Shown: positions 1-54,332 of the stretch, piece after piece
Position numbering within the stretch: position 1 is the first letter of the stretch
Layout of the letters: each line of letters starts with the position of its first letter
Sequence record: NC_054928.1
Source of the DNA: Escherichia phage vB_vPM_PD112
Direction: 5' to 3' (one strand)
DNA: 64,000 bases
Made by a program: the position numbers and the translations under genes
Notes under the pieces: model-generated
Told to the model about the DNA's origin: nothing
Database searches by the model: none
What the model saw: only the letters and a program-made list of their open reading frames with translations

Positions 1-650
1 TGTTTTGAATTACTACGAATTGAACTACATCCGCCAGGAGCTTGTGCTTTTCCGGATACAACCAGATATTTGAACAAGGCCAAATGCGGATAACCTTGAT
101 TAATTAAATTGAGAAATGCATACATATCTTCGCATAAATCAATTTTTCCATACCCAATTTGTTCTGTTGTAAGTTTTCCAAGGTCATACCATGTATTCGT
201 GAATCCATATGAATTTTCACGATAATTACCCCAAGATGAAGTAATTTTAAAAATAGGTAGACGAGCATGGCCATGATAATACCCGCAATCCATGGCATCT
301 TCAACGTATTGAATCAATTCATAGAACTGTTCACGAGTTAATTGATTAATTTTATCTACGCAGCGACGATCATCTTTCTTTCGCATTGAACTCATACGAA
401 TAGTAGTATCATCATCGATCATCCAAATTCGTTGACCTGCATACATATCAGTAATTGCTTTACGAGTTCCAGCAATTCCATTAACATCATCAGGAATAGT
501 TACAATTTTAGCTCTAGACCCGTAAGCGTCATAATAAGCTTTTTCTTCATGTTCACGTACTACAATATGAGGTTCATAATCAGTCGGAAACATATCAAGG
601 GCAGAAACTGCCCCTACACGTTGATAGCTTGGAATTACGAATTGAATCAT
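1..650 (-). CDS. glycosyltransferase, N-terminal ~216 codons (gene runs off window start); DxD motif; occupies the T4 beta-gt locus but does not match T4 beta-glucosyltransferase
   Basis: Hand translation of minus strand from ATG at ~648-650 (MIQFVIPSYQRVGAVSALDMF...IWMIDDDTTIRM...), open to position 3; start overlaps gene 42 stop. Confidence 0.6.
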   Translation of the reverse strand, partial: MIQFVIPSYQRVGAVSALDMFPTDYEPHIVVREHEEKAYYDAYGSRAKIVTIPDDVNGIAGTRKAITDMYAGQRIWMIDDDTTIRMSSMRKKDDRRCVDKINQLTREQFYELIQYVEDAMDCGYYHGHARLPIFKITSSWGNYRENSYGFTNTWYDLGKLTTEQIGYGKIDLCEDMYAFLNLINQGYPHLALFKYLVVSGKAQAPGGCSSIRSNSK

Positions 651-1387
651 TTCCACTCACCGTTATAATCTTTTTTCGCAATATGAGTTTCACCAGTTTT
701 CCACCAATGGTCAACTAAATAAAACTGATTTTCGTAAACATGAAGACTTCCAACGTTCCATATAATAGAACCTGCTTTATATTGCCGCGATGGGTCGCCT
801 GCATTCAAATCAGATACTAATTTATCTAGTACGTATTTTTGCCATGCATAATCATTACGATAGCCTGCCCAGCAATCATTGCTTCTCATGTTAACAACCG
901 CATTGATTTTCTTGTCACGAATCAGGTACTGTACTGTATTCGTACACATGAAATCTGACATGCCATCTTTATTGTAGTCAAACTGCATGGATGGACGAGT
1001 ATAAATCATGATACCACGTCGAGAATCAGGATTTTGACCAAGTTCAGCTAAACACATGTCATACTGAGCATAGTTATCTTCTGACCAGATAGCCCAACCA
1101 TAATTCGAGTTAATTTCACCTTTAGAAGATGCTACCTGCTGCCAAATCTTTGGTGTTTCACCTGGAATATCTTTAACAAACAGACTTTGAGACTTATACC
1201 ATTCAAGTTCACGCTGAATGTATTCATCATTAAGAGCGCCAAAAATAAACGGTTCATCTGCTACAAATGATGCGCCAATAATTTCAATAGTTTTAACGCC
1301 AGTTTTATCAACTACGAAATCTTTTTCCTTTAATGCAAGCCCCAAATGAAGACGGATTTCTTCAACTGTCATAGAGTCACTAATCAT
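647..1387 (-). CDS. 42: dCMP hydroxymethylase
   Basis: 246 aa, same length and recognisable sequence as T4 gp42; synteny next to imm/43. Confidence 0.9.
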   Translation of the reverse strand: MISDSMTVEEIRLHLGLALKEKDFVVDKTGVKTIEIIGASFVADEPFIFGALNDEYIQRELEWYKSQSLFVKDIPGETPKIWQQVASSKGEINSNYGWAIWSEDNYAQYDMCLAELGQNPDSRRGIMIYTRPSMQFDYNKDGMSDFMCTNTVQYLIRDKKINAVVNMRSNDCWAGYRNDYAWQKYVLDKLVSDLNAGDPSRQYKAGSIIWNVGSLHVYENQFYLVDHWWKTGETHIAKKDYNGEWK

Positions 1388-1540
1388 TTAAACCTCAATT
1401 GATACATTCATATTTAACTTGTAACAGTAATAAACTCCAACCTAAAACAATAGTTGGAATCATAAGAGGAACCGTTACACTATAGTATATACTTATTATA
1501 ACCATCAAGATTAAAAGCAACACTGCTATAATTTTGCTTT

Positions 1541-1792
1541 TCATTCCTTCTCTCTGATGATAATTACCTGATTTGGCTGCGCAGACTTTTTAGTTTCACC
1601 TGCAATTGACCAAATAAATGTAATAAACCAACCAATAATTGACCAGTTAAACAGTAAAGATGTGAAAAAGATTCCTACTGTCGATTTTGACCCACGCATC
1701 AAGGCGATAAACCATGGAAGCATGTATATAATAATAGCCAACACGCCTGAAACTAAAACCATAAAAATTGAACCTGCTACTAAAGTTTCCAT
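1541..1792 (-). CDS. imm: superinfection immunity membrane protein Imm
   Basis: 83 aa, two hydrophobic segments, T4 Imm length and position. Confidence 0.85.
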   Translation of the reverse strand: METLVAGSIFMVLVSGVLAIIIYMLPWFIALMRGSKSTVGIFFTSLLFNWSIIGWFITFIWSIAGETKKSAQPNQVIIIREKE

Positions 1793-1799
1793 GTTTTCC

Positions 1800-2180
1800 T
1801 CACTTAGTCAAATTTTTTACACATGAATTATAAGAATTTACTACATACTCCATCGGAGCATTTTTACCAGTACGCCATTGGTAATTATTAGCCCAATTAG
1901 CCCAAAGCTCGGCGCAGTAGTTTTCAATTTTTTCTTCGCGTGTAATTACATCCGAATTACGATATGCTTGAGCAGATTCATCTGGACGAATAGCTTCGTC
2001 AAAATTCGCCTGCATTTGTTCTACTGTCTGTTTTGGAGCTTCTTTATAACACTTGACGTTAGGATTATAAAATTTGCTTGAACAGTTTACAATTTTTCCT
2101 ACATCAGACTGATTTACTACCGGTCCTTGAGCTACACAACCAGTAAGACCCAATGCAATAACCAAAATAGCGATTTTCAT
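1800..2180 (-). CDS. predicted lipoprotein (lipobox LTGC); probable ATG at 2180, track ORF extends to 2192 with TTG
   Basis: Signal peptide MKIAILVIALGLTGC; early promoter immediately upstream. Confidence 0.55.
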   Translation of the reverse strand: MKIAILVIALGLTGCVAQGPVVNQSDVGKIVNCSSKFYNPNVKCYKEAPKQTVEQMQANFDEAIRPDESAQAYRNSDVITREEKIENYCAELWANWANNYQWRTGKNAPMEYVVNSYNSCVKNLTK

Positions 2181-2214
2181 TTCATTCTCCAAATCCGTAT
2201 CAGTAGTTGATAGT

Positions 2215-2247
2215 TGTATAGTACCATGGAATAACAGGGATGTAAAC
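2215..2247 (-). promoter_or_regulatory. T4-type early promoter (-35 GTTTAC, 17 bp spacer, TG-extended -10 TACTATAC)
   Basis: Minus-strand read ...cacaaaactGTTTACatccctgttattccatgGTACTATACA; same motif recurs upstream of many minus-strand genes. Confidence 0.6.
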
Positions 2248-2330
2248 AGTTTTGTGAAAAAATTTTTAGGGAATCCAAAGGGTCCAGAATCATCTCTTTT
2301 TCATAAGTATAGATTTATATTACTTGTATG

Positions 2331-2351
2331 AAAAAGGGACCTGGAGGTCCC
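2331..2351 (-). terminator. stem-loop terminator downstream of gene 43
   Basis: gggacctggaggtccc inverted repeat followed by T-run on minus strand. Confidence 0.55.
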
Positions 2352-2364
2352 TAGATTTATTCTA

Positions 2365-5061
2365 TCAGCCAAACAGGAAGTCTAACGAAGCTTTTTCTTC
2401 ATAGTCCATGCCAGCCGATTCACACATACCCGCAAGCGGTTTAACAAACGATTTTTGGAACAAAGTTGAGTGGTCAATCCAAGATAGCACATCAGAACGA
2501 ATTTCTTTTGGAAGTTCTGTACCCGATGGCCAAGCAATGCACTTGTCACCAAATGGATTTCCCTCACGTAATGGAAGAACCATTACCTTATTTCCATCCA
2601 AAATTGGAGCTACACCTAGACCACTAACAGCTCGACGATAAGTTAGCACCCCACGAATATGGAACGGGCATTTAAATCCTGGCCAACCTTTATCATCATA
2701 TTTCGCTATATCATTCGCAGTTTTTACTTCAGCAATAACTTTATAGTCAAGTTGACGATATTCTTTCTCGAAGTTCTTGTAATATTCTTGGACAGACTCT
2801 TCACCTTCCTGAAGAATACGACGAATACTTTCTTCGAGAGCTTCTTGCACTGCTTTTGGTGTTGAACTCTGCTGAGTTTCCATACCCATGATTTTTAGAT
2901 GTGGTTCAGCAAATCGCTTATCTTCCATATCATAAACGTTCAGAGCATAACGTTTTTTCGCTTTCCAAAATCCACCGACACCCTTTGAACCAAGCGGAGG
3001 ACAAGAAATAGCTTCACGGTCCATATGCATCAGATGCTCGCGATTATTCATATAATCACATAACTCACGATATGCAACATCAATCATAGGTTCCATCTTT
3101 TTCTTACCGAACTGATTCATGAATTCAACTAAATCATTTTGTTCTTTAAAGCGGTCAAGACCTACTTTTTCAATAACTTTATCTACACAAACATATACCG
3201 AATCAGTATCACCCGCGGCGATGAAATCTTCATCATTAGTTCCGCATACTTTATTCAGATATTCGTTAATTTTACGAGCAATCCACTGAATACCAACTTG
3301 ACCAAAAATTGTGATAGCAGTAGCATTTCGCAAATCATAGTAACGGAAATGAATGTTACCAAGAGCACCATAAAGACTGTTAATAAGAATTTTACGGTTC
3401 AGCTGATTTGTGTTAGCAAGTGTAGCTGCTTTTTCACATTCTTCAATCAGACTATTGAGAACGGATTCGGTGTAATTCGATAGTTCATTTAAGAAATCAT
3501 CATTGAACTTAACATATCGTTCAACTTCTGGTTTAGTTGAACAAGACCCTGCGCCTTTCATAATAATCTTTTTAATAGCTTCGGCATTCATTTCTTCAGC
3601 GAACATTTTCTTTTTCCAATCTTTACGCTGGAAAAATACTTTAGCGATTTCCTTTGGAATGATACCTTCTTGATGCTTATCATACATCCATCCATTCGGA
3701 GAACAAGAATATTCATCACTCGGTTTAGGAGCTGTTCCTGCAATATATTCATGAATTGGATGAACTTTAAACTGCCCACGAATAGTCTCAGGACTAATGT
3801 TAACCTGACGAATAATGCTAGGATACAGAGACGTCAAGTCAAAACTCATAATATATCGACGAGCAATTGGTTTAGGTTCAAACACAAATGCACCCGGAAA
3901 ACTTTGTTTAACGTGCGAACCCTGTTGAGGAATAACCTTATGTTCACCTTTCAGTGAGTTAAAAATAATAGCGTCCCAAGTTTTAATAGGACTCATTACG
4001 CCAGAAAAAGGCATTTTAGCGTAATAAGACATACTTAAAACTAGATCGATAAACCCACGAATTTTATCAATTGCTTGAACTGATTCTACGTCAATGATGT
4101 TATAACTAATGTATCGTTGATGATTAGTCTCACGAAGTTTATTAATAGGACCATCATACGGTAATTTACCTTTTTTGGTTTCATGCTGAGCAACTGATTC
4201 CAAAGAGAATGACGGCAAATTAGTAAATGCGAATTTCTTATACAAATCTAAATAATCAAGAATAGATACGCCATCAATAGAATAAATTTCTTTGCTACCG
4301 TACACATTTTGAATTAGTTTAGATTTTACCCGACCGATTGGAGAGAAGCGTTTCATACTACGTTCGCCAAGAACCATTTTAACACGATTCATGATATACG
4401 GAACGTCAAATCCCTCAATATTCCAACCAGTAAAAATAGCAGGTCGTTTCTGTTCCCAGAGATTAATATATTCCATGAGCATATCACGCTCATTATCAAA
4501 TGGCATATAAATTACTCGGTCAAGAATTTCTTGAGGAACTTCATCACCACCTTCACAGTCAAGCTTAGCAGCTAACTTTGCATCCCATTTTGATACTGAA
4601 CCGTACATTGAATTCAAAAGGTCGAAAACATAAAAACGGTCATCAATTGAATCGTAATGAGTGATAGCATCAATTTCATATTCTGCTTTCATTGGGTCAG
4701 GAAATTTATCACCAGTAACCTCAATGTCACAGTTAGCTACACGAACAAATTTTCGGTCATAAACAATTTCTGAACCATATGTATCACTGATATAAGCGAG
4801 TTTAAAATCGTTCATACCGAGAGCTTCGAGACCGATGTCTTCCATTCGTTTCATCCAATCTCGTGCATCTTTCATTGATGGAAATTTTTGAGGAGCGCAA
4901 TTTTTACCATAAATGTCTTTGTATTTTGATTCTTCCTTACAGTGTCTAAACATAGTCGGAATATATTCTACTTCACGAGTACGTTCCTTTCCGTTTTCAT
5001 CAATATAACGTTCAACAATGTTATTTCCGACTGTTTCAATAGAGATATAAAATTCTTTCAT
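2365..5061 (-). CDS. 43: DNA polymerase (family B)
   Basis: 898 aa, T4 gp43 length and N-terminus MKEFYISIETVGNNIVERYIDENGKERT. Confidence 0.95.
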   Translation of the reverse strand: MKEFYISIETVGNNIVERYIDENGKERTREVEYIPTMFRHCKEESKYKDIYGKNCAPQKFPSMKDARDWMKRMEDIGLEALGMNDFKLAYISDTYGSEIVYDRKFVRVANCDIEVTGDKFPDPMKAEYEIDAITHYDSIDDRFYVFDLLNSMYGSVSKWDAKLAAKLDCEGGDEVPQEILDRVIYMPFDNERDMLMEYINLWEQKRPAIFTGWNIEGFDVPYIMNRVKMVLGERSMKRFSPIGRVKSKLIQNVYGSKEIYSIDGVSILDYLDLYKKFAFTNLPSFSLESVAQHETKKGKLPYDGPINKLRETNHQRYISYNIIDVESVQAIDKIRGFIDLVLSMSYYAKMPFSGVMSPIKTWDAIIFNSLKGEHKVIPQQGSHVKQSFPGAFVFEPKPIARRYIMSFDLTSLYPSIIRQVNISPETIRGQFKVHPIHEYIAGTAPKPSDEYSCSPNGWMYDKHQEGIIPKEIAKVFFQRKDWKKKMFAEEMNAEAIKKIIMKGAGSCSTKPEVERYVKFNDDFLNELSNYTESVLNSLIEECEKAATLANTNQLNRKILINSLYGALGNIHFRYYDLRNATAITIFGQVGIQWIARKINEYLNKVCGTNDEDFIAAGDTDSVYVCVDKVIEKVGLDRFKEQNDLVEFMNQFGKKKMEPMIDVAYRELCDYMNNREHLMHMDREAISCPPLGSKGVGGFWKAKKRYALNVYDMEDKRFAEPHLKIMGMETQQSSTPKAVQEALEESIRRILQEGEESVQEYYKNFEKEYRQLDYKVIAEVKTANDIAKYDDKGWPGFKCPFHIRGVLTYRRAVSGLGVAPILDGNKVMVLPLREGNPFGDKCIAWPSGTELPKEIRSDVLSWIDHSTLFQKSFVKPLAGMCESAGMDYEEKASLDFLFG

Positions 5062-5120
5062 AGATATTCCTTAGTTTATAGCCCGAGTTATTAGGCTCTT
5101 GATATATTATACTCCAATTA

Positions 5121-5136
5121 AGGGGCCGAAGCCCCT
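5121..5136 (-). terminator. GC-rich hairpin (gggccGAAGcccc type) downstream of regA
   Basis: aggggccgaagcccct perfect stem with GAAG loop; no strong U-run. Confidence 0.4.
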
Positions 5137-5139
5137 TGC

Positions 5140-5508
5140 TTAATTACCAATCGTATATTTAGGAACGAGTTTCCATTCATGTTTTTGTTTAAAAGAAATA
5201 ACTCGGAAGTTATTAGTTAAATCTTTCATAAAAGTTCTTTGACCAGGAACGATTTCAATTAGTCCCCAATCTTCTAATAGCCATGCAATCGAATCACGAC
5301 GAACTTCATCTTCTTCTGTCATTTCAACCTGGCGACCATCCATACGAAGCATTTCTTTAAAATGAACGATATAGTATAGTCCTTTTTTCTGGAGAATATG
5401 ACAGGATTGATACAGAACTTTATCTTTATTATTAGCAATTCCCATACGAGTCAGAGTTTCTTTAACTTTCAGAAAATCTTCAGGTTTTTTAAGAGTAATT
5501 TCAATCAT
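5140..5508 (-). CDS. regA: translational repressor RegA
   Basis: 122 aa, matches T4 RegA (MIEITLKKPEDFLKVKETLTRMGIANNKDK). Confidence 0.9.
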   Translation of the reverse strand: MIEITLKKPEDFLKVKETLTRMGIANNKDKVLYQSCHILQKKGLYYIVHFKEMLRMDGRQVEMTEEDEVRRDSIAWLLEDWGLIEIVPGQRTFMKDLTNNFRVISFKQKHEWKLVPKYTIGN

Positions 5509-5509
5509 T

Positions 5510-6073
5510 TTACCATTCCAATGCTAGTTTTTTGAGTTGTTTCTGTTCTTTTACATTCTTAGTCACTTCTTTCAAAAAATCATCCGTGACTAAACCTTTT
5601 AGTTCTTTTAATACTAAAGGAAGTTTTCCATTTTTAGTAAGAATTGATTTATAGTTAATTGCATCGTTTGTATTAACTTGATACCGCTTAGCAAGTAACT
5701 TAATAATCAATACTTCAGTAGAATCTTCGACCAGTTTTGCCCATTTACCATATCTTTTACCCCGAGGAACAGCAGCCATCAGATAATTAAAATGGGCTTC
5801 ATCGCTTAAACCTGATCCAATTAAATTCATAGCATATACAGCTGGCATGCACTCAGGAAATTGTGATAATGCATTCTCAACCATGTATTTTGAATAATCT
5901 TTTTGAGCAATAGAGCATTTAGTTTTATTATTAATAGCTCCAATTATTTCAAAAAACTCATTTTCAGCTTTTTCCTTAAAAGAATCAGCAGCAGATTGGA
6001 CAGCTGTCCAATCTTTTGAATACCAAGCAACTTGATGCTCGTTTAATTGAATATCATCTTCAAATAAGCTCAT
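5510..6073 (-). CDS. 62: clamp loader small subunit
   Basis: 187 aa, T4 gp62 length, between regA and 44. Confidence 0.85.
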
Positions 6074-6074
6074 A

Positions 6075-7034
6075 TCACTTCCACTGCATTTCGCATGCCA
6101 ATTGAATGAAAAGATATGCTAAATGTAATTCCGTATTAGCCGCAATTCCATGATACTGGTTATTTTCACCAACAATTTCATACATACGAATAATACTTTG
6201 CGGAGTTACGCGTGTATAAATTTCTTCGGCAAGTTTACCAACGAACCACGAATAATCAGCCGCATATTTTGGTGCTAAAGCTCTGAGTTGTTTAACATCT
6301 TTATTTTTGAGAGACTCAAGAACATCATCAATAGCACCACGATCGTTAGTAACCAGTGATAAAATACCAGCATCCAAAACACCTTTAGATGAATAACTAT
6401 CGAGCTCACCAATAGTTTTACGAAAATCAGGAAAATTCTTTTTAACCAAAGCTGCTACAACTTTCATATCAGCTATAGCAATTCCTTCACGCTTGCAGAT
6501 TTCAGTCAATCGACGAATCATCTGCTTCATCATTTCAATTTTATCTTCATCGGTCGGTTGACCGAATGTGATAACTCGACAGCGTGACTGAAGCGGTTTA
6601 ATAATACCATCAATATTGTTAGCAGTAATAATAATACTACAGTTTGAACTATAAGCTTCCATAAAGGAACGAAGATGTCGCTGAGATTCTGCTAACCCTG
6701 AACGGTCAAATTCATCAATAACGATTACTTTTTGACGACCATCAAATGAAGCGGCGCTGGCAAAATTAGTCAAAGGACCACGAACGAAATCAATTTTACA
6801 ATCTGATCCATTCACAAACATCATATCAGCATTTACATCATGACACAATGCTTTTGCTACAGTTGTTTTACCTGTTCCTGGAGAAGGAGAATGAAGAATA
6901 ATATGTGGAATCTTACCTTTACTTGTAATAGATTTAAAGGTTTCTTTATCAAAGGCGGGAAGAATACATTCATCGATAGTAGATGGACGATATTTCTGTT
7001 CAAGAATGTGTTCTTTTTCATTTACGGTAATCAT
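6075..7034 (-). CDS. 44: clamp loader AAA+ ATPase subunit; probable ATG at 7034 (MITVNEKEH)
   Basis: Walker [11 protein letters not shown], Walker B VIVIDEFD; T4 gp44 synteny. Confidence 0.9.
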
Positions 7035-7066
7035 AATTTCCTCATTCAAGTTTTAGTGTAAATTAT

Positions 7067-7084
7067 AAAGGGCCGAAGCCCTTT
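7067..7084 (-). terminator. hairpin terminator between genes 45 and 44
   Basis: aaagggccgaagcccttt inverted repeat immediately after gene 45 stop. Confidence 0.5.
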
Positions 7085-7085
7085 A

Positions 7086-7772
7086 TTAAAAATCGTGGGT
7101 AGAATCAGCTTCAAGAGCTACCACATAATTCGCGTGTTCACCTTCAAATTTAGCAGCACCTTGTTTACCTTTTGCCCAGAGCAGAAGTTTATAATTTCCT
7201 GGTTGCATTTTCATATTTGCCATATTGATAATGAAATTAAATGTATTTTCACCATCATAATCGCCAAGAGTCAAAGAATATTTAACACGAGTCAAAGCAG
7301 AATCTTCTACTTTATTAAAACCGTTAATTACGATTTTACCTTCTTTTACCGTGATAGCAATTGTATCAATTTGCAGACCACGAGATACACGCAACAGTTG
7401 TTGAAGGTCTTCAGCTTTAATTTCAGTAACAACAGATGCTACCGGGAATGGAATTGGTTTATTAGGAGCAACTACTGTACTCGGATCGGCTGCTGGCCAA
7501 AAAATTGTTGAGCGAGCATCAGCAATTTTAATATTACCATCTTCTGACTGGGAAATTTCTGCATCATCATTAACTAGAGACAGAATACCGAGAAAACCGT
7601 TCAAATCGTAAATTGCTACATCAAAATCAATAACGTCAGAAATATTTGCTTCAGCATAAGTTGTACCATTAACTGCACGAGTCATAATAAATTGACCAGA
7701 TTTAAGCATAATACCGGAGTTAATAGTAGCGAAATTTTTCAAAATATTCAGTGTATCTTTAGACAGTTTCAT
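7086..7772 (-). CDS. 45: sliding clamp
   Basis: 228 aa, T4 gp45 length and sequence. Confidence 0.9.
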   Translation of the reverse strand: MKLSKDTLNILKNFATINSGIMLKSGQFIMTRAVNGTTYAEANISDVIDFDVAIYDLNGFLGILSLVNDDAEISQSEDGNIKIADARSTIFWPAADPSTVVAPNKPIPFPVASVVTEIKAEDLQQLLRVSRGLQIDTIAITVKEGKIVINGFNKVEDSALTRVKYSLTLGDYDGENTFNFIINMANMKMQPGNYKLLLWAKGKQGAAKFEGEHANYVVALEADSTHDF

Positions 7773-7801
7773 GTAATTTCCTTCAATTCAAATGAGATTT
7801 A

Positions 7802-7827
7802 ATTTTATAACTAATTTAATAAAGCAA
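7802..7827 (-). promoter_or_regulatory. T4 middle promoter (MotA box TTGCTTTA, 12 bp spacer, -10 TAAAAT) upstream of gene 45
   Basis: Minus-strand read TTGCTTTAttaaattagttaTAAAAT. Confidence 0.5.
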
Positions 7828-8217
7828 TTAACGATTAAAATCAGCAGCAATTGTTTCCGCAACAATTTGAGCAGCAACAATTAGACGTTCATCTGCATTA
7901 CCGCAATAACCATCTTCAAGGCGTTCACCACATGAAGTCATAATAAATTTGGCACCAGCGTTTAGGGATTCTGTAGTATGTTTGCGCATTAGTTCAATCC
8001 ATTTATCACTCACTTCACGATCGATAGCTTCATAATACGCATGACGAGCAGGTGCAGATTTAATTTTGTTCTGAATAACTTCCATTGCGTTATCAGAAAG
8101 AGACAAAACCCATGCTCGACGAATTTTATTTTGGTTTTGTGGATTTGAATCAGAACGCACGTGTTTTGGCTGAATATCTTTTACATCAACAGTATAATTC
8201 ACAGTAATTTTAGTCAT
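7828..8217 (-). CDS. rpbA: RNA polymerase binding protein RpbA
   Basis: 129 aa, T4 position between 45 and 46. Confidence 0.8.
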
Positions 8218-8226
8218 AATACACCT

Positions 8227-8415
8227 TTAGTCATAATAATCAGTAACAGTCCAAGCTTCATTTCTATTGGACATTATTTTTGTATATTCTGATTTAAATG
8301 CATTCCTAAGCATAGATTCAGTAACTATATGCTCTTCATTAGAAAAATTATTTCTCAGAATATATCGTTTTATTTCAGGAATAGTTAATAGATGCTGTCC
8401 AGTTGAATATTCCAT
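8227..8415 (-). CDS. hypothetical protein (T4 45.2 position)
   Basis: 62 aa ORF, synteny. Confidence 0.5.
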   Translation of the reverse strand: MEYSTGQHLLTIPEIKRYILRNNFSNEEHIVTESMLRNAFKSEYTKIMSNRNEAWTVTDYYD

Positions 8416-8470
8416 GTTTTTCCTCCATAGAGATTATACTCTAATAAATTAAAGCATAATCTCTTATAAA

Positions 8471-10153
8471 TTAAACCATTACAGTAAATCGACCAACTTT
8501 CTTCATTTGAAGATGCTGACCATATTCTTGCGGGTCATGGTCTTTATGCGAAATTATAAAGACATTAGTGTTTTTCATTGAATTTATAATATTAGCTACA
8601 CCTTTAATACCTTCGGCATCAAATGACCCATCAAACACTTCATCAAGAATTAATGTACTAATACTAACACCAGATACGATAGAAGCAATATCACGCCAAG
8701 TAAATAAAAGAGCAATATCAATTCGTGCCTTTTCGCCTTCACTAAATGAAGCATAACTAAAATCTTCACGACCACGGGATTTAATTGTCTCATTAAATTC
8801 TTCATCTAATGTAAACACATAATCCGCTTCCATTATTTTAAGATAATGGTTAATCTGCTTATTAAATAATGGAATGTACTTTTTAATAATAGCACCTTTA
8901 ATACCAGAATCTTTGAGCATATCAGTCAAAATTCCTCGGTGGTATTTTTCCATTACTAAATTAGTTTTTGTCTTAACAATTTTATCAAGTTCTTCTTGAA
9001 GCAGTGCTATTTCATCAGCATGGTCAATAAACTCAGAAGATGCTTTTTCTATAGCCGCTTTAACCTTTTTGGCTTTATCTACCGTCGTGATTAGAGATTG
9101 CTTTTTATTGCGAATATCATTTGCCAACGTCTGCTGGGTTTTAATATTATCTCGGTATTCATCAACAAGAACTTTTAAATTATCACGATGCGTTGAAAGC
9201 TGTTCAAATGAATGCGTACATTCAGAAACTTTATCTTTAATTTTAGAAACAACTTTATCACCGGAACTTAATTGTGACAAACAGGTTGGACATAATCCAC
9301 CTTCGTGATACATATTAATGACTTTATTATACGAATCAATTTTTGATTTAATTAAAAATGCTTCTTGACCAATTTTATTAAATGCATCAGTCGGGTCTTC
9401 ATCTAAAACAATATTAACTAATCTTTCGTTAGCTTCTTCTATTTCCGATTTTAGTGTTCTAGCTTCTTTTGCCAAATCATCATACATATTTTGCAGACGA
9501 GTAAGGTTTTCACCAGACAATTTTTTCTGGCGTTCAACATTATCGTTATATATTTTAATTTGTTGGATAATACTATCTTTTTTAACATCAAGCACTTGGT
9601 TTTGTGAATTTAATTCACGTATTAGTGCTTTATTAAGCTTATCCATTTCAGCTAATGTTCCTACTTCGAGCAGGTCTTCGACGAGTTTTCTTCTTGCAGG
9701 AGTGGATAGGCCCATAAAAGGGGTATATCCAGCCGTGCCGAGTACGACGATCTGTTTGAAACTGGCGTATGACATTCCGATAAGCTGTTCAAATTCTGCT
9801 TGGAAATCTTTACTGCTGGCAGATTCATTAAGACGTGTACCGTTAACGGTGATTTCGAAAACATTTGGTTTTTGTCCTCTTTTGATATAGTACTTTTTCT
9901 CATCATATTCCATCCACAGTTCAACTAAAAGTTCTTTCTTATTTGTGCTGTTTATTAATTGGCCTTTCTTTACATCACGAAATGGCTTGCCAAAAAGCCC
10001 AAATGTGATGGCTTCTAACATAGTAGACTTACCACCGCCATTTCGTCCAGTAATAAGAGTTTTTTGAACCTTATCTAGTTGAATGTCAATCCCATTTTGA
10101 CCAACTGACATTATATTTTTATATTTTACTCTATTAAGTTTAAAATTCTTCAC
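8471..10153 (-). CDS. 46: recombination endonuclease subunit (Rad50/SbcC-like ATPase)
   Basis: 560 aa; P-loop GRNGGGKST, long coiled-coil, C-terminal ABC signature; T4 gp46 length. Confidence 0.9.
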   Translation of the reverse strand: MKNFKLNRVKYKNIMSVGQNGIDIQLDKVQKTLITGRNGGGKSTMLEAITFGLFGKPFRDVKKGQLINSTNKKELLVELWMEYDEKKYYIKRGQKPNVFEITVNGTRLNESASSKDFQAEFEQLIGMSYASFKQIVVLGTAGYTPFMGLSTPARRKLVEDLLEVGTLAEMDKLNKALIRELNSQNQVLDVKKDSIIQQIKIYNDNVERQKKLSGENLTRLQNMYDDLAKEARTLKSEIEEANERLVNIVLDEDPTDAFNKIGQEAFLIKSKIDSYNKVINMYHEGGLCPTCLSQLSSGDKVVSKIKDKVSECTHSFEQLSTHRDNLKVLVDEYRDNIKTQQTLANDIRNKKQSLITTVDKAKKVKAAIEKASSEFIDHADEIALLQEELDKIVKTKTNLVMEKYHRGILTDMLKDSGIKGAIIKKYIPLFNKQINHYLKIMEADYVFTLDEEFNETIKSRGREDFSYASFSEGEKARIDIALLFTWRDIASIVSGVSISTLILDEVFDGSFDAEGIKGVANIINSMKNTNVFIISHKDHDPQEYGQHLQMKKVGRFTVMV

Positions 10154-11777: not shown

Positions 11778-11794
11778 AAGGGCCGAAGCCCTTT
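11778..11794 (-). terminator. hairpin at end of a-gt
   Basis: aaagggccgaagcccttt overlapping the a-gt stop. Confidence 0.45.
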
Positions 11795-12995
11795 ATTTTG
11801 TAATAATGTCAAACTGCTCTTTAAAGCAGAAGCTTGAATCTTGGTGCTGATACAAAAATTCATAAGCTTTTTCGCGTTCACGGTCATAAAGAGCTCGGTC
11901 AGATGACAGTTCTTTAATACGTTCAAATGTTGATTCCATGTCATTTTCATCAAACCAAACGATACCGCTATCGTGCGAAATTAATGGAGTATTATCAACA
12001 CGGAATTTTAAATTTTCGCCAGTAGATTTCCAAAATACTGGAATTGTTCCACATGCACCAAGCTCGAGATGAGTATATTCTAAAGAACGCTGTAGATATT
12101 TTTTATCTAATTTACTCAGCTGATAACCAAATCCGGATTTACTCATGCGTTCAAGCATTTCGCTATTTACATAACGGTCGAGAATTTGCGTCGGCAAATT
12201 AGGAGCAATTTTAATTTGGTCTACTTGATGAAGACGATAATACTCGTATGGAATTCCTTTTTCTTTAATAGGAATGAAAGCTGGAGAACGTTCCAGACCT
12301 TCCATAATAGTACTTAGTCCTGCAGGTTTAAGATGTTTTTCGTGAAAATCAAACATCTGATAAAAGCCTTTCCATGTAGTAGTACGACCAATCCAACGGT
12401 TGATATTCATGTTAATTTCAGAAACATCTTTCCAGTAGGTTGATCGAACCTTCGCAATATCCATAGGAGGCTGAAAGTTATATACGGTCGGTGCTTCTTC
12501 AATATCATCAAACAGAGAAACAGTTTCCGGATACCATTCTTTCATCAAAACTTTATTAAAGTCACCATTATCAGAATGGCTAAAAATAACATCAGCTCGA
12601 CGAACAGTTTCTTCTAATCCCAAATTTCGGCGTAAAGAAAGAGAAGAATGGTCATGCTGATAAACTACAACACGAACCGAAGGTTTAATGTTATCAATAA
12701 TTTTTTTATAGTTATTAATAGTGTCTTCTTCTACTGAAGTAGCAGGAACTGAATTGATAATTAGAATATCACAATCATTTACCAACTTAAGTGTTTTATC
12801 GTATTCTTTTGCCAATAAAACCGGAATTGAAAATGACTTATAATCATGCGCGCAATTACGAGTAAATGATTTATCTTTAGCATAAACCAAAGTTACTTCA
12901 TGACCATTTTTAATAAACCAATCACGCTGCTCAAGAGAAAATTTAGTTACACCGCAACCTTCAAGACCTCGAGCCATAAAAATACATGCTTTCAT
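11793..12995 (-). CDS. a-gt: alpha-glucosyltransferase (HMC-DNA glucosylation)
   Basis: 400 aa, near-identical to remembered T4 a-gt with a few substitutions. Confidence 0.9.
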   Translation of the reverse strand: MKACIFMARGLEGCGVTKFSLEQRDWFIKNGHEVTLVYAKDKSFTRNCAHDYKSFSIPVLLAKEYDKTLKLVNDCDILIINSVPATSVEEDTINNYKKIIDNIKPSVRVVVYQHDHSSLSLRRNLGLEETVRRADVIFSHSDNGDFNKVLMKEWYPETVSLFDDIEEAPTVYNFQPPMDIAKVRSTYWKDVSEINMNINRWIGRTTTWKGFYQMFDFHEKHLKPAGLSTIMEGLERSPAFIPIKEKGIPYEYYRLHQVDQIKIAPNLPTQILDRYVNSEMLERMSKSGFGYQLSKLDKKYLQRSLEYTHLELGACGTIPVFWKSTGENLKFRVDNTPLISHDSGIVWFDENDMESTFERIKELSSDRALYDREREKAYEFLYQHQDSSFCFKEQFDIITK

Positions 12996-16397: not shown

Positions 16398-16718
16398 TTA
16401 ATCTTCTATGATATCTCTATCATATCCAAGTGAAATGAGAGTTTCTTTGAAGTGTTTAATGTTCTTTTGTCTAGAATCATTAATGAAAATGACTGGATAA
16501 CGAATGTTAAGAGATGTGAATCCAGCGCGTTTAGCAAGAGATACAATCAGTGGACGATCATACTCAATCTTACCATTATTTGTAAGAACTTTATAGAAAG
16601 TAAAAGGAGCATTGAGCTCCTTTAGAAGTTTTGTAACTGATTGACATCCAGGACAACGACCTACTTCATCTGGAATTCCATAGACTTCAATCTTATTCTT
16701 TGAGTTCGAGTTTTGTTC
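16398..16718 (-). CDS. nrdH: glutaredoxin-like NrdH; start uncertain (GTG at 16718 suggested, track ORF extends to 16850)
   Basis: CPGC redox motif and cis-Pro region YPVIFIN typical of glutaredoxin fold. Confidence 0.6.
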   Translation of the reverse strand, partial: EQNSNSKNKIEVYGIPDEVGRCPGCQSVTKLLKELNAPFTFYKVLTNNGKIEYDRPLIVSLAKRAGFTSLNIRYPVIFINDSRQKNIKHFKETLISLGYDRDIIED

Positions 16719-17004
16719 CACGAGAAATAATTCCTTGATAAGCCCAGTATGGCGGGTTAACAGAATCATCGCCAGAATTTTCTTCAGGAAAATAAACCTG
16801 GATAACAAATCCAGATGCATCAAAGGTAAAATAAACCGTAGGCAGTTCACCTAACAATTCAGCACGAGCATTAATTTCTTCGAGATCTCGTTCACGTCCA
16901 GCCCAAAAACTAGGATTTAGACTACATTCATAGAAATAATAGTCATTACCGAACATATCAAAACCCTTCCAACTCTCTACCACATATCGCTCAAAACTAA
17001 TCAT
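16693..17004 (-). CDS. hypothetical protein
   Basis: 103 aa ORF. Confidence 0.4.
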   Translation of the reverse strand: MISFERYVVESWKGFDMFGNDYYFYECSLNPSFWAGRERDLEEINARAELLGELPTVYFTFDASGFVIQVYFPEENSGDDSVNPPYWAYQGIISRGTKLELKE

Positions 17005-17006
17005 AA

Positions 17007-17222
17007 TTAGGCCTTTTTATCAAGAACAGCATTTAGTTTGTTAGTAATTTTATCCAGACGCTCATTGAACTCGCTAGAAGATAGTCCTTTTTCTGGAGAA
17101 ATTAAGCTAATCACGAAAAATATAGCAATAAAAGGAATAAGAAAAATAGCACCAACTGCCATAAACAAAAAGAACGTTACAGTTGTAAGAAAATCAGCTA
17201 AACCTTTACGAAATTTATACAT
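17007..17222 (-). CDS. small membrane protein (two TM segments)
   Basis: 71 aa, hydrophobic hairpin. Confidence 0.45.
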   Translation of the reverse strand: MYKFRKGLADFLTTVTFFLFMAVGAIFLIPFIAIFFVISLISPEKGLSSSEFNERLDKITNKLNAVLDKKA

Positions 17223-17337
17223 ATTTTACCCTTAATTGATTAACCAAGCATTGATAAGCACTAAACTATACTGTGAATAAAATTCTGGACCAAAATGAAA
17301 AATCATATCATTTATAGTATCCATAATGTAATTCAAT

Positions 17338-17808
17338 TTAATCATGTTTCCACACCCCATCGGTATTTGACCAAAGTCGCTGATTATCTGATCCTCGCCA
17401 CAGCTTTTTGGTCGGAAGATTTTTCTCATACTTCCCATCAATAATAACATCAACATATTTAAGCATTTCTAGTTGTTTAATATCTTCAAACTTATATCCT
17501 GTCCACAACCAAATGCTTTTATTGGGATAAAGATTTTTTACTGTTTGAACAATGCAATGAACATCATCTCGGTTATCAGGATAAAGAGGGTCTCCTCCAG
17601 TTATAGTTAATCCTTCTATATAATCATTATTCAAACATTCAATTAATTGTTCTAGTGTTTCACCAGTGAATGGAACGCCATTTCTAGCATTCCATGTTGA
17701 TTTATTATAACACCCTTCACATTTATGCAAACACCCCGTAACGAAAAGAACGACCCTGCATCCAGGGCCATTTACAAAGCAGCACGGGTATATTCTGTCA
17801 TAATTCAT
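17338..17808 (-). CDS. nrdG: anaerobic ribonucleotide reductase activating protein (radical SAM)
   Basis: Cys cluster CxxxCxxC (GCLHKCEGCYN); adjacent nrdD. Confidence 0.85.
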   Translation of the reverse strand: MNYDRIYPCCFVNGPGCRVVLFVTGCLHKCEGCYNKSTWNARNGVPFTGETLEQLIECLNNDYIEGLTITGGDPLYPDNRDDVHCIVQTVKNLYPNKSIWLWTGYKFEDIKQLEMLKYVDVIIDGKYEKNLPTKKLWRGSDNQRLWSNTDGVWKHD

Positions 17809-18047
17809 AATAATATCCAATTTTTCCAAGCTTCATCAGTAGAATTACAGCGTTTTAGTATAAGATGTCTAGAAACTTTTATGGCATTTGAGCACTTTTT
17901 AATTGAATCATATTTTAATAAAGCGGCACGAATCAATGTTCCTGACCCCATATAACCGTCATTTATGTTATCGGTGCTATGCGCACCGATATATTCCTTT
18001 GAATTAATTATATTTGTTATTTTATAAATTATATAATACCTATGCAT
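17805..18047 (-). pseudogene. truncated GIY-YIG homing endonuclease remnant (segB-like N-terminal half only)
   Basis: YIIYKITNIINSKEYIGAHSTDNINDGYMGSG parallels segB N-terminus; 80 aa, no DNA-binding domain; fills nrdG-nrdD gap. Confidence 0.5.
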
Positions 18048-19857
18048 GTTTTACTCGTTTTACCATTTCTTTCATTTTACCTAAATTCCATGGAACAACG
18101 CTAGGAGTTCCAAGATATCCGCATGTTCTTCTTATGGTGTTCATCTTTTTAGGATCAGTTTCTCCACAAATAGAACAAACAAATCCGTTCTCGGTTGGAG
18201 TCATTTCATGGGTACTTCCACACGTAAAACATTTATCTACTGGCATATTAACGCCAAAATAATCTAAATGTTGTGCAGCATAATCCCATACAGCCTCAAG
18301 GCCTTTTAGGTTATTTTTCATATCAGGAAGTTCAACATAAGAAATGTGACCGCCTGTCGCGATGAAATGATATGGGGCTTCGCGAGAAATCTTTTCAAAT
18401 GGAGTAATATTTTCTTCTACTGAAACGTGGAAACTGTTAGTGTACCAGCCTTTATCAGTAACATCTTTTACACTTCCATATTTTTCGGTATCAAGTTTAC
18501 AGAAGCGATAGCACAGGTTTTCAGCAGGAGTAGAATACAAGCTAAAAGCAAATCCGGTTCTTTCAGTCCACTGCTTAAGATGAGTATTCATTTTAGTTAA
18601 AATTTCTTGTCCAATATCACGACCGACAAGAATATTCAATTCGTGAATACCAATGTATCCTAGGGACACTGAACTTCTACCATTTTTAAATAACTCAATT
18701 ATATCGTCATCAGGTTTAAGACGAACCCCGAATGCACCTTCCTGGTAAAGAATAGGAGCAACAGTAGCTTTAACTCCTTTTAAGGAACTAATTCTACACA
18801 TCAATGCTTCAAAACATAAATCCATTCGTTCATTGAACAATTCGGCAAATTTCTGTTCATTGAACTGTGTTCCAATATAAGAATCTAATGCAATACGAGG
18901 AAGATTCAGTGTTACAACACCAAGATTATTACGTCCATCAAGAATTTCATTACCAGTCGAATCTTTCCATACGCCCAAGAAACTACGGCAACCCATTGGA
19001 GAAACAGGAATAGATGAACCGGTGATAGCTTTATTGTTCTTAGCCGAAATGATGTCAGGATACATTCTTTTGCTTGCGCACTCTAAAGCAAGCTGCTTAA
19101 TATCATAGTTCGGATCGTCTTTATAAAGATTAACACCTTCTTCAACGAACATAACAAGTTTAGGGAAAATAGGAGTTATCCCATCACGACCGAGACCTTT
19201 AATACGATTTTTCAGAATTGCTTTCTGAATCATTCGTTCAGTCCAGTCAGTTCCCGTACCAAATGTAATTGTTACAAAAGGAGTTTGTCCGTTTGAACTA
19301 AAGAGAGTATTTACTTCATATTCATAAGCTTGGAACGCATCGTATACGTCTTTTTCTGTTTTAGATTGGGCATAATTCAACGCATCAGTGATTTGCCATT
19401 TTTCCGCGTCCTCAATATGTTTCGCATAGGTGCGTTTAACATAAGGAGAAAGTACTTTATCTACATTCGCAAAAGTCGTTCCGCCATATTGATGAGAAGC
19501 AACCTGTGCAGTAATTTGTGCCATAATTGCAGTAGCAACGCCAATTGATTTAGGAGTTTCAATCTGTGCATTACCGAGCTTAAATCCGTTCTCAAGCATT
19601 CCTTTTAAATCTACTAAACAGCAATTAGTAAAAGGCAATGATATACTGTAATCTAAATCATGAAAATGAATTAACCCGGCATTATGAGCATTTACAATAT
19701 GGCTTGGAAGAATACTGCAAGCGATATGTTTAGAAACAATACCGGCCATTAAATCTCTTTTTGTTGGAAAGACACGAGAATCTTTGTTGGCGTTTTCGGT
19801 ATTTAATTCTTTATCTTTATTTGAAATAAAATTTAAAACATCTTTCTCTAAAGACAT
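18040..19857 (-). CDS. nrdD: anaerobic ribonucleoside-triphosphate reductase (uninterrupted, no intron)
   Basis: 605 aa contiguous ORF, T4 NrdD length; C-terminal Zn-ribbon CxxC...CxxC and glycyl-radical region. Confidence 0.9.
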   Translation of the reverse strand: MSLEKDVLNFISNKDKELNTENANKDSRVFPTKRDLMAGIVSKHIACSILPSHIVNAHNAGLIHFHDLDYSISLPFTNCCLVDLKGMLENGFKLGNAQIETPKSIGVATAIMAQITAQVASHQYGGTTFANVDKVLSPYVKRTYAKHIEDAEKWQITDALNYAQSKTEKDVYDAFQAYEYEVNTLFSSNGQTPFVTITFGTGTDWTERMIQKAILKNRIKGLGRDGITPIFPKLVMFVEEGVNLYKDDPNYDIKQLALECASKRMYPDIISAKNNKAITGSSIPVSPMGCRSFLGVWKDSTGNEILDGRNNLGVVTLNLPRIALDSYIGTQFNEQKFAELFNERMDLCFEALMCRISSLKGVKATVAPILYQEGAFGVRLKPDDDIIELFKNGRSSVSLGYIGIHELNILVGRDIGQEILTKMNTHLKQWTERTGFAFSLYSTPAENLCYRFCKLDTEKYGSVKDVTDKGWYTNSFHVSVEENITPFEKISREAPYHFIATGGHISYVELPDMKNNLKGLEAVWDYAAQHLDYFGVNMPVDKCFTCGSTHEMTPTENGFVCSICGETDPKKMNTIRRTCGYLGTPSVVPWNLGKMKEMVKRVKHA

Positions 19858-20669
19858 AATTCTAATTTATCCTTTTGAAATTCTTCGTCTAAATATGGGT
19901 TCCAACCCATTTTAAACCTTTTGATGAAATTATCAATTCTAAATTTCGGTAAGTTTAAATCCGCAAAAATAGATGATTTACTTTTAAAATCTGGACCTAA
20001 ATAATCATATAAAATTTCTGCGTATTTTAACCATAATATATAAGTACCAGATTTAATTGCTCTCGGAGTTTTCCAAGGTTTTACACCATACATCGGATTT
20101 CCACTTCCTTTATGCCTGATAGAAGATGAAATTCCAATTTTAATTTTAGCTTCCTCTGTATGCGAAAATCCATGATGTGGATTTTCTTTCCAGTATTTTT
20201 TAGAAGCTTCTGATATTTTCTTTCTGGCTAAATTAGTATGATGCTTTCCATAAAATCCATGATTTTTACCTTTATTACGATTTCTTTTAATCATGGTTAT
20301 TGATTGCTTTTTTCTAGTTTCTTTAGAAGGAGAAACACCGTATGTTGTAAATTGACCATTAGCATATGCTAAATTAAAATACTCTTTATTCCATATATCT
20401 TTTTCTATATTCTTTTGAAATTCAGCTTCAATGCTAGTTATTTGCTCATCTCCGACTAATTGAAAATATAATATTTCAACTTTCGGCGTTTCTTTCAACA
20501 GGGCTTTTTGAAATTCGGAAGATGACGAAGACGAATAATAAAATTTACCATTTTTATCAATAATATTCGTTCCGTCAAAAGTGCAATTGGTTTTACTTCC
20601 AATATAATAATACGGCGGGGTTTTAGCATTAATTCTACTAATAAATGATAGTTTATATACTACATTCAT
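19848..20669 (-). CDS. free-standing GIY-YIG homing endonuclease with NUMOD3-like DNA-binding repeats
   Basis: N-terminal VVYKL...YYYIGSKTN; repeats GKHHTNLARKKISEASK and GFSHTEEAKIKIGIS; wedged between 49 and nrdD with coupled overlaps. Confidence 0.65.
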   Translation of the reverse strand: MNVVYKLSFISRINAKTPPYYYIGSKTNCTFDGTNIIDKNGKFYYSSSSSSEFQKALLKETPKVEILYFQLVGDEQITSIEAEFQKNIEKDIWNKEYFNLAYANGQFTTYGVSPSKETRKKQSITMIKRNRNKGKNHGFYGKHHTNLARKKISEASKKYWKENPHHGFSHTEEAKIKIGISSSIRHKGSGNPMYGVKPWKTPRAIKSGTYILWLKYAEILYDYLGPDFKSKSSIFADLNLPKFRIDNFIKRFKMGWNPYLDEEFQKDKLELCL

Positions 20670-21139
20670 TTTAAACTCTTTCTAAGCTGCTTCTTAAATG
20701 AAGCTATTAATTGTGTTTTGGTGTCAGATTCATTATATTCAAATCCTCTTTGAAGCATCTCAGCCATCATTTCCTCTTTTCCTAAACGAGAAAATTCCTT
20801 TGATTTATCTCCAACGAAGTTAGGGTGAATATTATTTTGGGTGTAATCGGATTTTAAATAAGTAAGTAAATTTTCTAACCATTCAAGATAATCAACGCCT
20901 TGTCCCTTTAAGCCAGAACGATTAAATTTGTGTTTCATTTGACCTTCTGCAGCATTACACAGATTACAAAGCAATCCACGTACCTTTCCAGCTTTCGGTC
21001 CATTTAATTCATGGTCATGGTCAAGGTGATTAGCTTGAACATCAGGATTTAGTTCTCGTTGGCAAATTAAGCATTTACCGTTTTGTGCATTATAAAATTT
21101 TTGTTTTTCTTCTTTGTATAATTTGCCAGTCAATAACAT
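20666..21139 (-). CDS. 49: endonuclease VII (Holliday junction resolvase)
   Basis: 157 aa; matches T4 gp49 (CLICQRELNP...HDHELNG). Confidence 0.9.
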   Translation of the reverse strand: MLLTGKLYKEEKQKFYNAQNGKCLICQRELNPDVQANHLDHDHELNGPKAGKVRGLLCNLCNAAEGQMKHKFNRSGLKGQGVDYLEWLENLLTYLKSDYTQNNIHPNFVGDKSKEFSRLGKEEMMAEMLQRGFEYNESDTKTQLIASFKKQLRKSLK

Positions 21140-40886: not shown

Positions 40887-41356
40887 TCAGTGATAAAGTT
40901 ATTTAAATTTTGAGTATATTTCTTTTCATCAAAAATCTTTTGTTGTCTGCGTAGCCGCCATGGCATTTCAATGAACGTGTACCATATCCCAGATAATATT
41001 GCTGCTGTAAAAATATTAACAAGTATGGTTAAAAGAATCCAATCTCCTATTCTGTCCATTGGATTTTTTATAAAAAAGTAAAATACGAATGATGTCACAG
41101 GAAGACTAATAATATACCACAGAATCATAATCTTATCTGTGAACCAATCAGCGTTCGTTAATTTAGCGCGACCATTATGAATACACACGAATTTATCATC
41201 TGTTGCAGTAGATGGCTTAACTGGTTGATATCCCATTCTAAACTCCCTAATCAGCAAATTTTTCATATCTTCGGAACAGCCATTCCAGTCAACTCTATCA
41301 ACTGGAATGCCATCATCCCCATCATCTAAATCATACCAGCGAGTTTTTAAAATCAT
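40868..41356 (-). CDS. membrane protein, member of F-[IV]-x-[ED]-C-R-K tail family (e.2 position)
   Basis: Two TM segments; C-terminus NNFITECRKLK. Confidence 0.5.
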   Translation of the reverse strand: MILKTRWYDLDDGDDGIPVDRVDWNGCSEDMKNLLIREFRMGYQPVKPSTATDDKFVCIHNGRAKLTNADWFTDKIMILWYIISLPVTSFVFYFFIKNPMDRIGDWILLTILVNIFTAAILSGIWYTFIEMPWRLRRQQKIFDEKKYTQNLNNFITECRKLK

Positions 41357-41715
41357 CTGATTTTCCTACAATCACTTACAAACTCTTTCATTGATTCATT
41401 TTCAATATAAGACATGTAGTTATTATATTCTTTTAATTGTATTTTGTAATCCTTTTTTCTTTGCCAATTTATTTTAAAATTATCATAATGAAAATATAAC
41501 ATGGTACCAAAGAATGAAAATAATGAAATCGCTATAGTAAAACGAAGTTCACTCCAAACCTCTGTTATAATTGCTGAACCATCGATGTTTAAAATAATAC
41601 AGTCAATCATTAATCCAATAAGACTACCCGCAAGAGCTGTAAATACTGATACAGCAAGAATTAATAGTGCCTCAGGAAACGAATATTTGACTTTATTTAG
41701 TTTTGGCTTTTGCAT
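41353..41715 (-). CDS. membrane protein, same tail-motif family (e.3 position)
   Basis: Two TM segments; C-terminus KEFVSDCRKIR. Confidence 0.5.
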   Translation of the reverse strand: MQKPKLNKVKYSFPEALLILAVSVFTALAGSLIGLMIDCIILNIDGSAIITEVWSELRFTIAISLFSFFGTMLYFHYDNFKINWQRKKDYKIQLKEYNNYMSYIENESMKEFVSDCRKIR

Positions 41716-46592: not shown

Positions 46593-47201
46593 TTATTTAT
46601 TACGTGAAAAAGATTGTTCTATCAATTCTGGACACTTTCGTTCTATCCATTTTCTAGCTTTTTGTGGGCTTATACCTATTATTTTAGCAGCTTTACTAAC
46701 CCATCCAAATTTAGAATAATCGATTTTAACTAATTCTTCGTAAATTTCATCAGTTAAAATCTTTTCATTAATATTTACCAGTAAATGATATAATTTATTA
46801 TCATTAGCAATTTTAATGAATCTTTTATAGTTTCCGCCTTTACTTAAACCTAATGAAGTAATTGCAGATGATATAGTAGCCGAATTTAATAGTGCGTTTA
46901 AAATTTCTTCATCACTAACATTATAACGCTTTTTATTATTTTTAATATTTTTACCAGCAAAAGTATCAGTTTGCGAATGGCAATTTGGACATAATAATCT
47001 TAAATTTGATTTAAGATGATTTTTGTTATTTCCATCAATATGGTCTAATTGCAGAACAATATGCTTATTTTGCCATTTTGAAATTTTACAAATTGCGCAC
47101 TCATATGGAAAAATATTTTCTTTTATTATTTTATCTTTCAGCTTTCCTGTACTAAAATTTGGATGTTTTCCTTCAAAAATTTCAGCTAATTTAGTATCCA
47201 T
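46593..47201 (-). CDS. HNH homing endonuclease (Mob-like); probable ATG at 47201
   Basis: HNH motif LQLDHIDGNNKNHLKSNLRLLCPNCH; ends 7 nt from tRNA-Leu. Confidence 0.65.
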   Translation of the reverse strand: MDTKLAEIFEGKHPNFSTGKLKDKIIKENIFPYECAICKISKWQNKHIVLQLDHIDGNNKNHLKSNLRLLCPNCHSQTDTFAGKNIKNNKKRYNVSDEEILNALLNSATISSAITSLGLSKGGNYKRFIKIANDNKLYHLLVNINEKILTDEIYEELVKIDYSKFGWVSKAAKIIGISPQKARKWIERKCPELIEQSFSRNK

Positions 47202-54331: not shown

Positions 54332-54332
54332 T

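Follow-up and report, generated by a model that had tools for sequence, protein, structure and literature searches.

A probable gentiobiosyl-hydroxymethylcytosine-forming glucosyltransferase gene (ggt) beside gene 42 of the Tequatrovirus vB_vPM_PD112

The reading frame downstream of gene 42

The window analysed here is the whole 64,000 nt stretch of Escherichia phage vB_vPM_PD112 (NC_054928.1). The phage belongs to the T4-like coliphages (genus Tequatrovirus), and the minus strand of the window carries gene 62, regA, gene 43 (DNA polymerase), imm.1/imm and gene 42 in the order known from T4. Directly downstream of gene 42, a reading frame opens with the ATG at 650–648 and continues for 216 codons, running beyond the left end of the window, where its last 64 codons lie. 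The program-made ORF list omits this frame for the sole reason that the window edge cuts it off. An earlier note had described a partial ORF at this place; the frame is real, and its translation, MIQFVIPSYQRVGAV...RIWMIDDDTTIRM..., is the one quoted there. The features of the locus and of the associated pathway are the following.

1–664, no strand assigned: the part of the glucosyltransferase cassette within the window that lacks T4 homology (blastn of phage CE1 against T4; boundary sequences)
1–650, minus strand: ggt, also ba-gt or TAGT (beta-alpha glucosyltransferase), first 216 of 280 codons (translation; full gene in CE1; Pfam TAGT; PHROG 842; 97.5 % identity to T6 ggt)
126–131, minus strand: E174-D175 in the motif C-E-D-M-Y, candidate catalytic base (D175 invariant; start of helix 174–184)
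408–416, minus strand: D79-D80-D81 (GAT GAT GAT), DxD metal/nucleotide-sugar motif (invariant in the alignment; follows predicted strand 74–78)
618–632, minus strand: P-S-Y-Q-R, codons 7–11, N-terminal strand-1 motif of the nucleotide-sugar-binding fold (P7, S8, Y9 and R11 invariant in the alignment)
647–650, minus strand: ATGA, in which the ggt start ATG and the gene 42 stop TGA overlap (sequence and ORF coordinates)
647–1387, minus strand: gene 42, dCMP hydroxymethylase, 246 aa (94 % identical to T4 gp42; Pfam Thymidylat_synt)
11793–12995, minus strand: alpha-glucosyltransferase gene (a-gt), 400 aa (91 % identical to T4 alpha-gt; PF11440 AGT, 784 bits)

The ATGA overlap makes translational coupling of ggt to gene 42 likely, and a Shine-Dalgarno-like GGTGAG lies within the final gene 42 codons, a few bases 5′ of the ggt ATG. 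A scan for sigma-70 promoters around ggt returned a chance-level number (12, against 10.4 ± 3.2 and 11.3 ± 3.1 expected). Terminator-like sites in the ggt region numbered three, with 1.1 ± 1.1 expected; a 9 bp GC-rich hairpin, TAGGGGCAGTTTCTGCCCTTG, with a T-rich tail behind it, was scored as terminator-like at 596–616 on the minus strand, within ggt codons 12–19. It may have arisen by chance, or may act in translation or attenuation.

Over positions 1–1400 the window matches Escherichia phage vB_EcoM_CE1 (ON229909.1), the closest complete genome, at 100 % identity; no closer record was present in the phage collection searched. The CE1 gene is complete, at 843 nt and 280 codons, is annotated ‘glucosyl transferase’, and is followed on its 3′ side by a GIY-YIG homing endonuclease gene (segA), uvsX, gene 40 and gene 41. 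By comparison with CE1, the vB_vPM_PD112 gene is presumably also complete at 280 codons. The two are nevertheless different phages, identity being 99.4 % in the first 16.7 kb of the window and 94–99 % in the other blocks. Relative to CE1 the window has a mosaic structure, its blocks of 94–99.4 % identity being split by stretches without a megablast match; the window stretches around these gaps are approximately 16700–20700, 40900–41360, 46600–47200 and 54070–56360. Rearrangement also affects the anaerobic ribonucleotide reductase region, which annotated homing endonucleases interrupt in CE1.

Family, motifs and distribution of the encoded enzyme

The earlier note had proposed a BLASTP comparison with the T2 and T6 glucosyltransferases, and this comparison identifies the gene: the CE1/window protein is 97.5 % identical to the T6 enzyme over 280 aa and 98.2 % identical to that of T2, both encoded at the same locus. 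The Pfam family PF20691 TAGT (TET-associated glycosyltransferase; curated cut-off 27.5 bits) is matched with 39.2 bits by the window fragment and 38.0 bits by the full CE1 protein, across profile positions 2–205 of 205, and PHROG 842 matches at 1e-69. Homology to a non-glycosyltransferase family, which had been named as grounds for abandoning the claim, did not emerge, TAGT and PHROG 842 being the families matched. The Pfam GT2 models (Glycos_transf_2) gave no match to the protein at E values up to 1, and NCBIfam holds no model for it or for a-gt.

We therefore regard it as very probable that the ORF at 1–650 represents the Tequatrovirus gene for beta-1,6-glucosyl-alpha-glucosyl-hmC transferase, of which the window contains the 5′ three quarters. 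Neither the gene nor its function is new: both are already known from T2 and T6 and from hundreds of relatives with sequenced genomes. Winkler and Rueger reportedly cloned and sequenced the T2 and T6 genes in 1993. The names differ by author (beta-glucosyl-HMC-alpha-glucosyltransferase, ggt, ba-gt, g-gt and TAGT): T6 (MH550421) annotates the same gene in the same place as ggt, and many other records label it beta-glucosyl-HMC-alpha-glucosyltransferase. Annotation of the locus also contains errors. The T4-type b-gt of RB55 (KM607002) is called ‘beta-glucosyl-HMC-alpha-glucosyl-transferase’, gene 42 of CE1 (ON229909, extract 4647–5387) is a ‘hypothetical protein’, and gene 42 in many RefSeq records is a ‘thymidylate synthase’.

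That the protein differs from T4 beta-gt had also been claimed, and rightly so. T4 beta-gt does begin with MKIAIINMGNNV, and BLASTP similarity to it is not significant: at E values up to 10 the window/CE1 protein gave no alignment at all, and the T6 allele aligned over 10 residues with E = 1.9. PF09198, the family of T4 b-gt, gave no match in the ggt protein.

The GT-A-type DxD motif noticed from the sequence holds up in an alignment of homologues, in which P7-S8-Y9, R11, D79–D81 and D175 are invariant down to 32 % identity, with DDD79–81 at the end of predicted strand 74–78. Across 26 sequences, DDD is kept in all but one T6 record and one frameshifted copy, E174 and D175 are kept in 25, and R11 is kept in 24, the two T2 records having H instead. 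The window allele has R11 intact, and none of its 216 visible codons changes an invariant position. In the predicted structure, DDD takes the canonical DxD position of a GT-A fold, after strand 4, where D79–D81 would be expected to hold a divalent metal and the diphosphate of UDP. By analogy with the ‘ED’ motif of GT2 enzymes, E174/D175 is likely to be the catalytic base of an inverting GT-A enzyme; a base of this kind fits the formation of a beta-linked product from UDP-alpha-glucose. The model is of moderate quality, built on a shallow alignment of nine sequences (11 relatives retrieved), and its pLDDT falls below 50 at residues 131–149, 191–212 and 242–260. A sequence search of the PDB with the full protein gave chance matches only (E above 0.7), so a solved relative is not detectable by sequence. 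The TAGT of T6 has itself been modelled as a GT-A enzyme, as a sister group to GT2 (PMC13216743).

The ggt protein was found by tblastn in 688 phage records. At ≥90 % identity the ggt type occurs in 471 of them, and a further 203 have a homologue of 60–80 % identity; most of these are T4-like phages that infect Klebsiella, Enterobacter, Citrobacter or Salmonella. The T4-type b-gt reaches ≥90 % identity in 29 records. The ggt type is thus the majority at the locus, and ggt is the normal occupant of the slot beside gene 42, T4 being the exception. Positions 1–1400 of the window are covered over at least 80 % of their length, at ≥90 % identity, by 473 phage records.

The proposed modification pathway and its alternatives

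The gene content of the window points to a three-step pathway. In the proposed order, gp42 would make hydroxymethyl-dCMP, leading to hmC in phage DNA; the alpha-glucosyltransferase encoded at 11793–12995 would add a first glucose to hmC in alpha linkage; and the GT-A enzyme encoded by ggt would move glucose from UDP-glucose to the 6-OH of that first glucose, with inversion, giving gentiobiosyl-hmC. We hold with high confidence the model in which gp42 supplies hmC, alpha-GT adds alpha-glucose, and ggt acts as an inverting GT-A enzyme that adds beta-1,6-glucose, DDD79–81 binding metal and UDP and E174/D175 serving as base. Judged by its sequence, the vB_vPM_PD112 allele is probably active.

The T4 b-gt had no tblastn match in the window at E values up to 10, and only a chance match (E = 6) in the whole genome of CE1. 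It is probably absent from the rest of the vB_vPM_PD112 genome as well, as supported by a survey in which alpha-GT and beta-GT occurred together in only 6 of 753 phage genomes (PMC13216743).

Published work bears out what had been said of the T2/T6 enzyme, both in assigning gentiobiosyl-HMC formation to it and in reporting altered sensitivity to modification-dependent defence enzymes (PMC13216743, PMC13390438, PMC11078745, bioRxiv 10.64898/2026.02.25.707755). T2 and T6 carry alpha-GT and TAGT, the latter placing glucose on alpha-glucosyl-hmC to give the gentiobiosyl base (PMC13216743, NAR 2026). T6 with ba-gt deleted contains alpha-glucosyl-hmC only; its DNA becomes a substrate of Brig1 in vitro and the phage becomes more sensitive to Brig1 (PMC11078745, Nature 2024). 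The deglucosylase BapA is inactive on T6 DNA and active on DNA of T6 delta-g-gt (bioRxiv 10.64898/2026.02.25.707755, 2026 preprint). Gentiobiosyl-hmC resists BapA and, in vitro, Brig1; GmrSD-type enzymes still cut it (PMC13216743, PMC11078745, bioRxiv 10.64898/2026.02.25.707755). In Tequatrovirus isolates with alpha-GT and TAGT and without beta-GT, HPLC/MS detected hmdC, alpha-glucosyl-mdC and alpha-gentiobiosyl-mdC in two patterns, one being about 1 : 2 : 2 and the other consisting of hmdC (about one third) and gentiobiosyl-mdC (two thirds) (PMC13390438, AEM 2026). One of these isolates, EH2, encodes an enzyme 98.9 % identical to that of the window.

In virion DNA of vB_vPM_PD112 we would expect roughly one quarter to one third of hmC to be bare and the rest to be mostly gentiobiosyl-hmC with some alpha-glucosyl-hmC, beta-glucosyl-hmC being absent. 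Measured gentiobiosyl shares come to about 72 % for T6, about 5 % for T2 and, among the Durham isolates, about 40 or 67 % (PMC11078745, PMC13390438). With a spread from 5 to 72 % among enzymes at least 98 % identical, the exact mono- and diglucosyl pattern is not predictable. Because the window allele lacks the R11H substitution of T2, a high, T6-like or Durham-like gentiobiosyl fraction would be expected.

The main uncertainty concerns the diglucosylated share of hmC, and one alternative is that the T2 pattern applies. The T2 enzyme is 98.2 % identical and yet yields only about 5 % gentiobiosyl-hmC (PMC11078745, bioRxiv 10.64898/2026.02.25.707755), so that identity at this level is no guarantee of the T6 pattern, and the Durham isolates EL, BGP and Geo show the intermediate 1 : 2 : 2 pattern (PMC13390438). 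A phage in which a few per cent of hmC is diglucosylated and the DNA is essentially alpha-monoglucosylated is unlikely here, however, as R11H is confined to the two T2 records among the 26 sequences, and seven Durham isolates, EH2 included, have about two thirds gentiobiosyl-mdC (PMC13390438). A silent loss of function, or a lesion in the 64 3′ codons outside the window, would leave alpha-glucosyl-hmC only. Lesions of ggt do occur in sequence records (T6 MH550421, T6 AP018814 and a frameshift in a CF1-like Citrobacter phage), but all 216 visible codons are open with every invariant residue intact, and the closest genome, CE1, has the complete 280-codon gene; we regard an inactive ggt as very unlikely.

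With a different acceptor or donor, the enzyme would take bare hmC or beta-glucosyl-hmC as its substrate, or would attach some other sugar in place of glucose. TAGT homologues of 47–66 % identity adjoin a beta-gt homologue, and not alpha-gt, in CC31-, Merlin-, S16- and Muldoon-like phages, and TAGT is solitary in many phages (PMC13216743); acceptor specificity therefore varies within the family. At 97.5 % identity to the T6 enzyme, a different specificity is improbable, and T6 without ba-gt keeps alpha-glucosyl-hmC while losing gentiobiose (PMC11078745, bioRxiv 10.64898/2026.02.25.707755). The bare state of about one quarter to one third of hmC in phages with ggt speaks against direct action on hmC (PMC13390438, PMC11078745). 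Another acceptor or donor is thus extremely unlikely, and transfer to alpha-glucosyl-hmC is the reading that we retain.

The comparison of alleles also brought out several changes of ggt in sequence records. Both independent T2 records, AP018813 (extract 1783–2625) and MH751506 (extract 1786–2628), have R11H, corresponding to window codon 11 at 618–620, whereas R11 is otherwise invariant in 24 homologues down to 47 % identity and is present in the 32 % relative. As gentiobiosyl-hmC stands at ~5 % in T2 and ~72 % in T6, R11H is a candidate cause of the difference; we found no statement of R11H as an explanation of the low T2 share in the cited TAGT literature. In T6 MH550421 (ggt at extract 4138–4980), codon 10 is TAG and the CDS is annotated from M20, which would drop strand 1 of the fold; in T6 AP018814 (ggt at extract 1635–2474), one GAT of GAT-GAT-GAT is lost and DDD becomes DD. 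Mutation in particular stocks, amber suppression or sequencing error could account for these T6 lesions. In the Citrobacter phage CF1-like genome IMG/VR UViG_2974573174 (171,911 bp; positions 3001–3821), the TAGT ORF stops after 49 codons, through a frameshift or an assembly error.

History of the slot and comparison with known systems

Synteny of the TAGT position with T4 beta-GT has already been stated (PMC13390438), and the boundaries of the exchanged segment can be placed precisely. In blastn, CE1 and T4 share homology only in CE1 extract 4665–9400 and 1–3830. At one edge, T4 homology begins again at window position 665, 18 nt ahead of the gene 42 stop, which explains why the last six residues and codons of gp42 differ between T4 and the window; at the other, it returns 23 nt before the ggt stop codon. 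Immediately upstream of segA, T4 (NC_000866, extract 4237–4263) still carries the final 23 nt of ggt, TTCATCgAATAGCAGTTGATTAA, with one mismatch and with the stop codon included, the CE1 counterpart being extract 3808–3830.

Since T4 retains this end of ggt, its segA flank derives from a genome that had ggt, and the sequences suggest that in the T4 lineage b-gt arrived secondarily and took the place of ggt. The earlier note had proposed that T2/T6-type phages replace beta-gt with their own enzyme. The type of enzyme was correctly recognized; the replacement probably ran in the reverse direction, given the 471 against 29 records and the 23 nt remnant in T4. Our broader reading, which we advance tentatively and at slightly less than even confidence, is that the slot beside gene 42 is an exchangeable cassette with sharp limits, in which ggt is ancestral and the b-gt of T4 a secondary replacement, and that flanking homing endonucleases may have promoted the exchange. 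If true, it bears on the history of the locus and not on a new gene function.

Homing endonuclease genes are unevenly distributed around the slot. An insertion of about 632 bp resembling segD separates gene 42 from ggt in about 30 of the best 40 Tequatrovirus matches, and is annotated as a segD homing endonuclease in LR746311 (extract 2147–2788). The window, CE1, T2 and T6 are without it and have the ATGA overlap at that junction (647–650 in the window) instead. Downstream of the glucosyltransferase slot, segA is present in CE1 and T4 and absent from T2, T6 and LR746311.

Which host defences are effective against a T-even phage is decided by the sugar pattern of its hmC. A genome with alpha-gt and ggt and without beta-gt allows predictions of sensitivity to restriction and defence, and of behaviour with restriction enzymes and in the preparation of sequencing libraries, and knowledge of the gene set is useful for annotation and for the choice of phages for therapy.

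Among known systems, those of T6 and T2 are the closest, with ggt between gene 42 and uvsX; as in vB_vPM_PD112, ggt lies directly downstream of gene 42 and has a-gt as its partner. The ATGA overlap of gene 42 and ggt is common to the window, T2 and T6 AP018814. From the T2 and T6 alleles the window ggt differs by a few conservative substitutions only, and it has neither the R11H of T2, nor the amber at codon 10 of T6 MH550421, nor the Asp loss of T6 AP018814. Whereas segA follows ggt in CE1, T6 and T2 lack it. The b-gt of T4 occupies the same slot, between gene 42 and segA/uvsX, and is likewise a UDP-glucose-dependent decorator of hmC DNA. However, T4 b-gt is a GT-B enzyme (PMC13216743) and ggt is modelled here as GT-A; the T4 enzyme takes bare hmC as acceptor and gives a beta-monoglucosyl product, in contrast to the alpha-glucosyl-hmC acceptor and gentiobiosyl product of ggt.

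More distant TAGTs, of 47–66 % identity, are found in Karamvirus, Moonvirus, Gelderlandvirus and Slopekvirus-like phages, including CC31, Merlin, S16, Klebsiella T4-like phages and Serratia phage Muldoon, where they adjoin gene 42 and keep all invariant motifs. Many are paired with a beta-gt homologue (about 49–53 % identity to T4 b-gt) and not with alpha-gt, the two genes directly adjoining in CC31 (NC_014662), Merlin (NC_028857), S16 (NC_020416) and Muldoon (MN095771). Such pairing implies that these TAGTs would act on beta-glucosyl-hmC or yield a different product, a question already raised in PMC13216743. Beyond phages, the predicted structure resembles cellular GT2-type GT-A enzymes (BcsA, the chondroitin synthase K4CP, TarP, GlfT2 and SpsA), at only 8–17 % sequence identity. 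Unlike these enzymes, TAGT has as its acceptor a sugar on duplex DNA, and its C-terminal region of about 70 residues, which is poorly modelled, is without counterpart among them.
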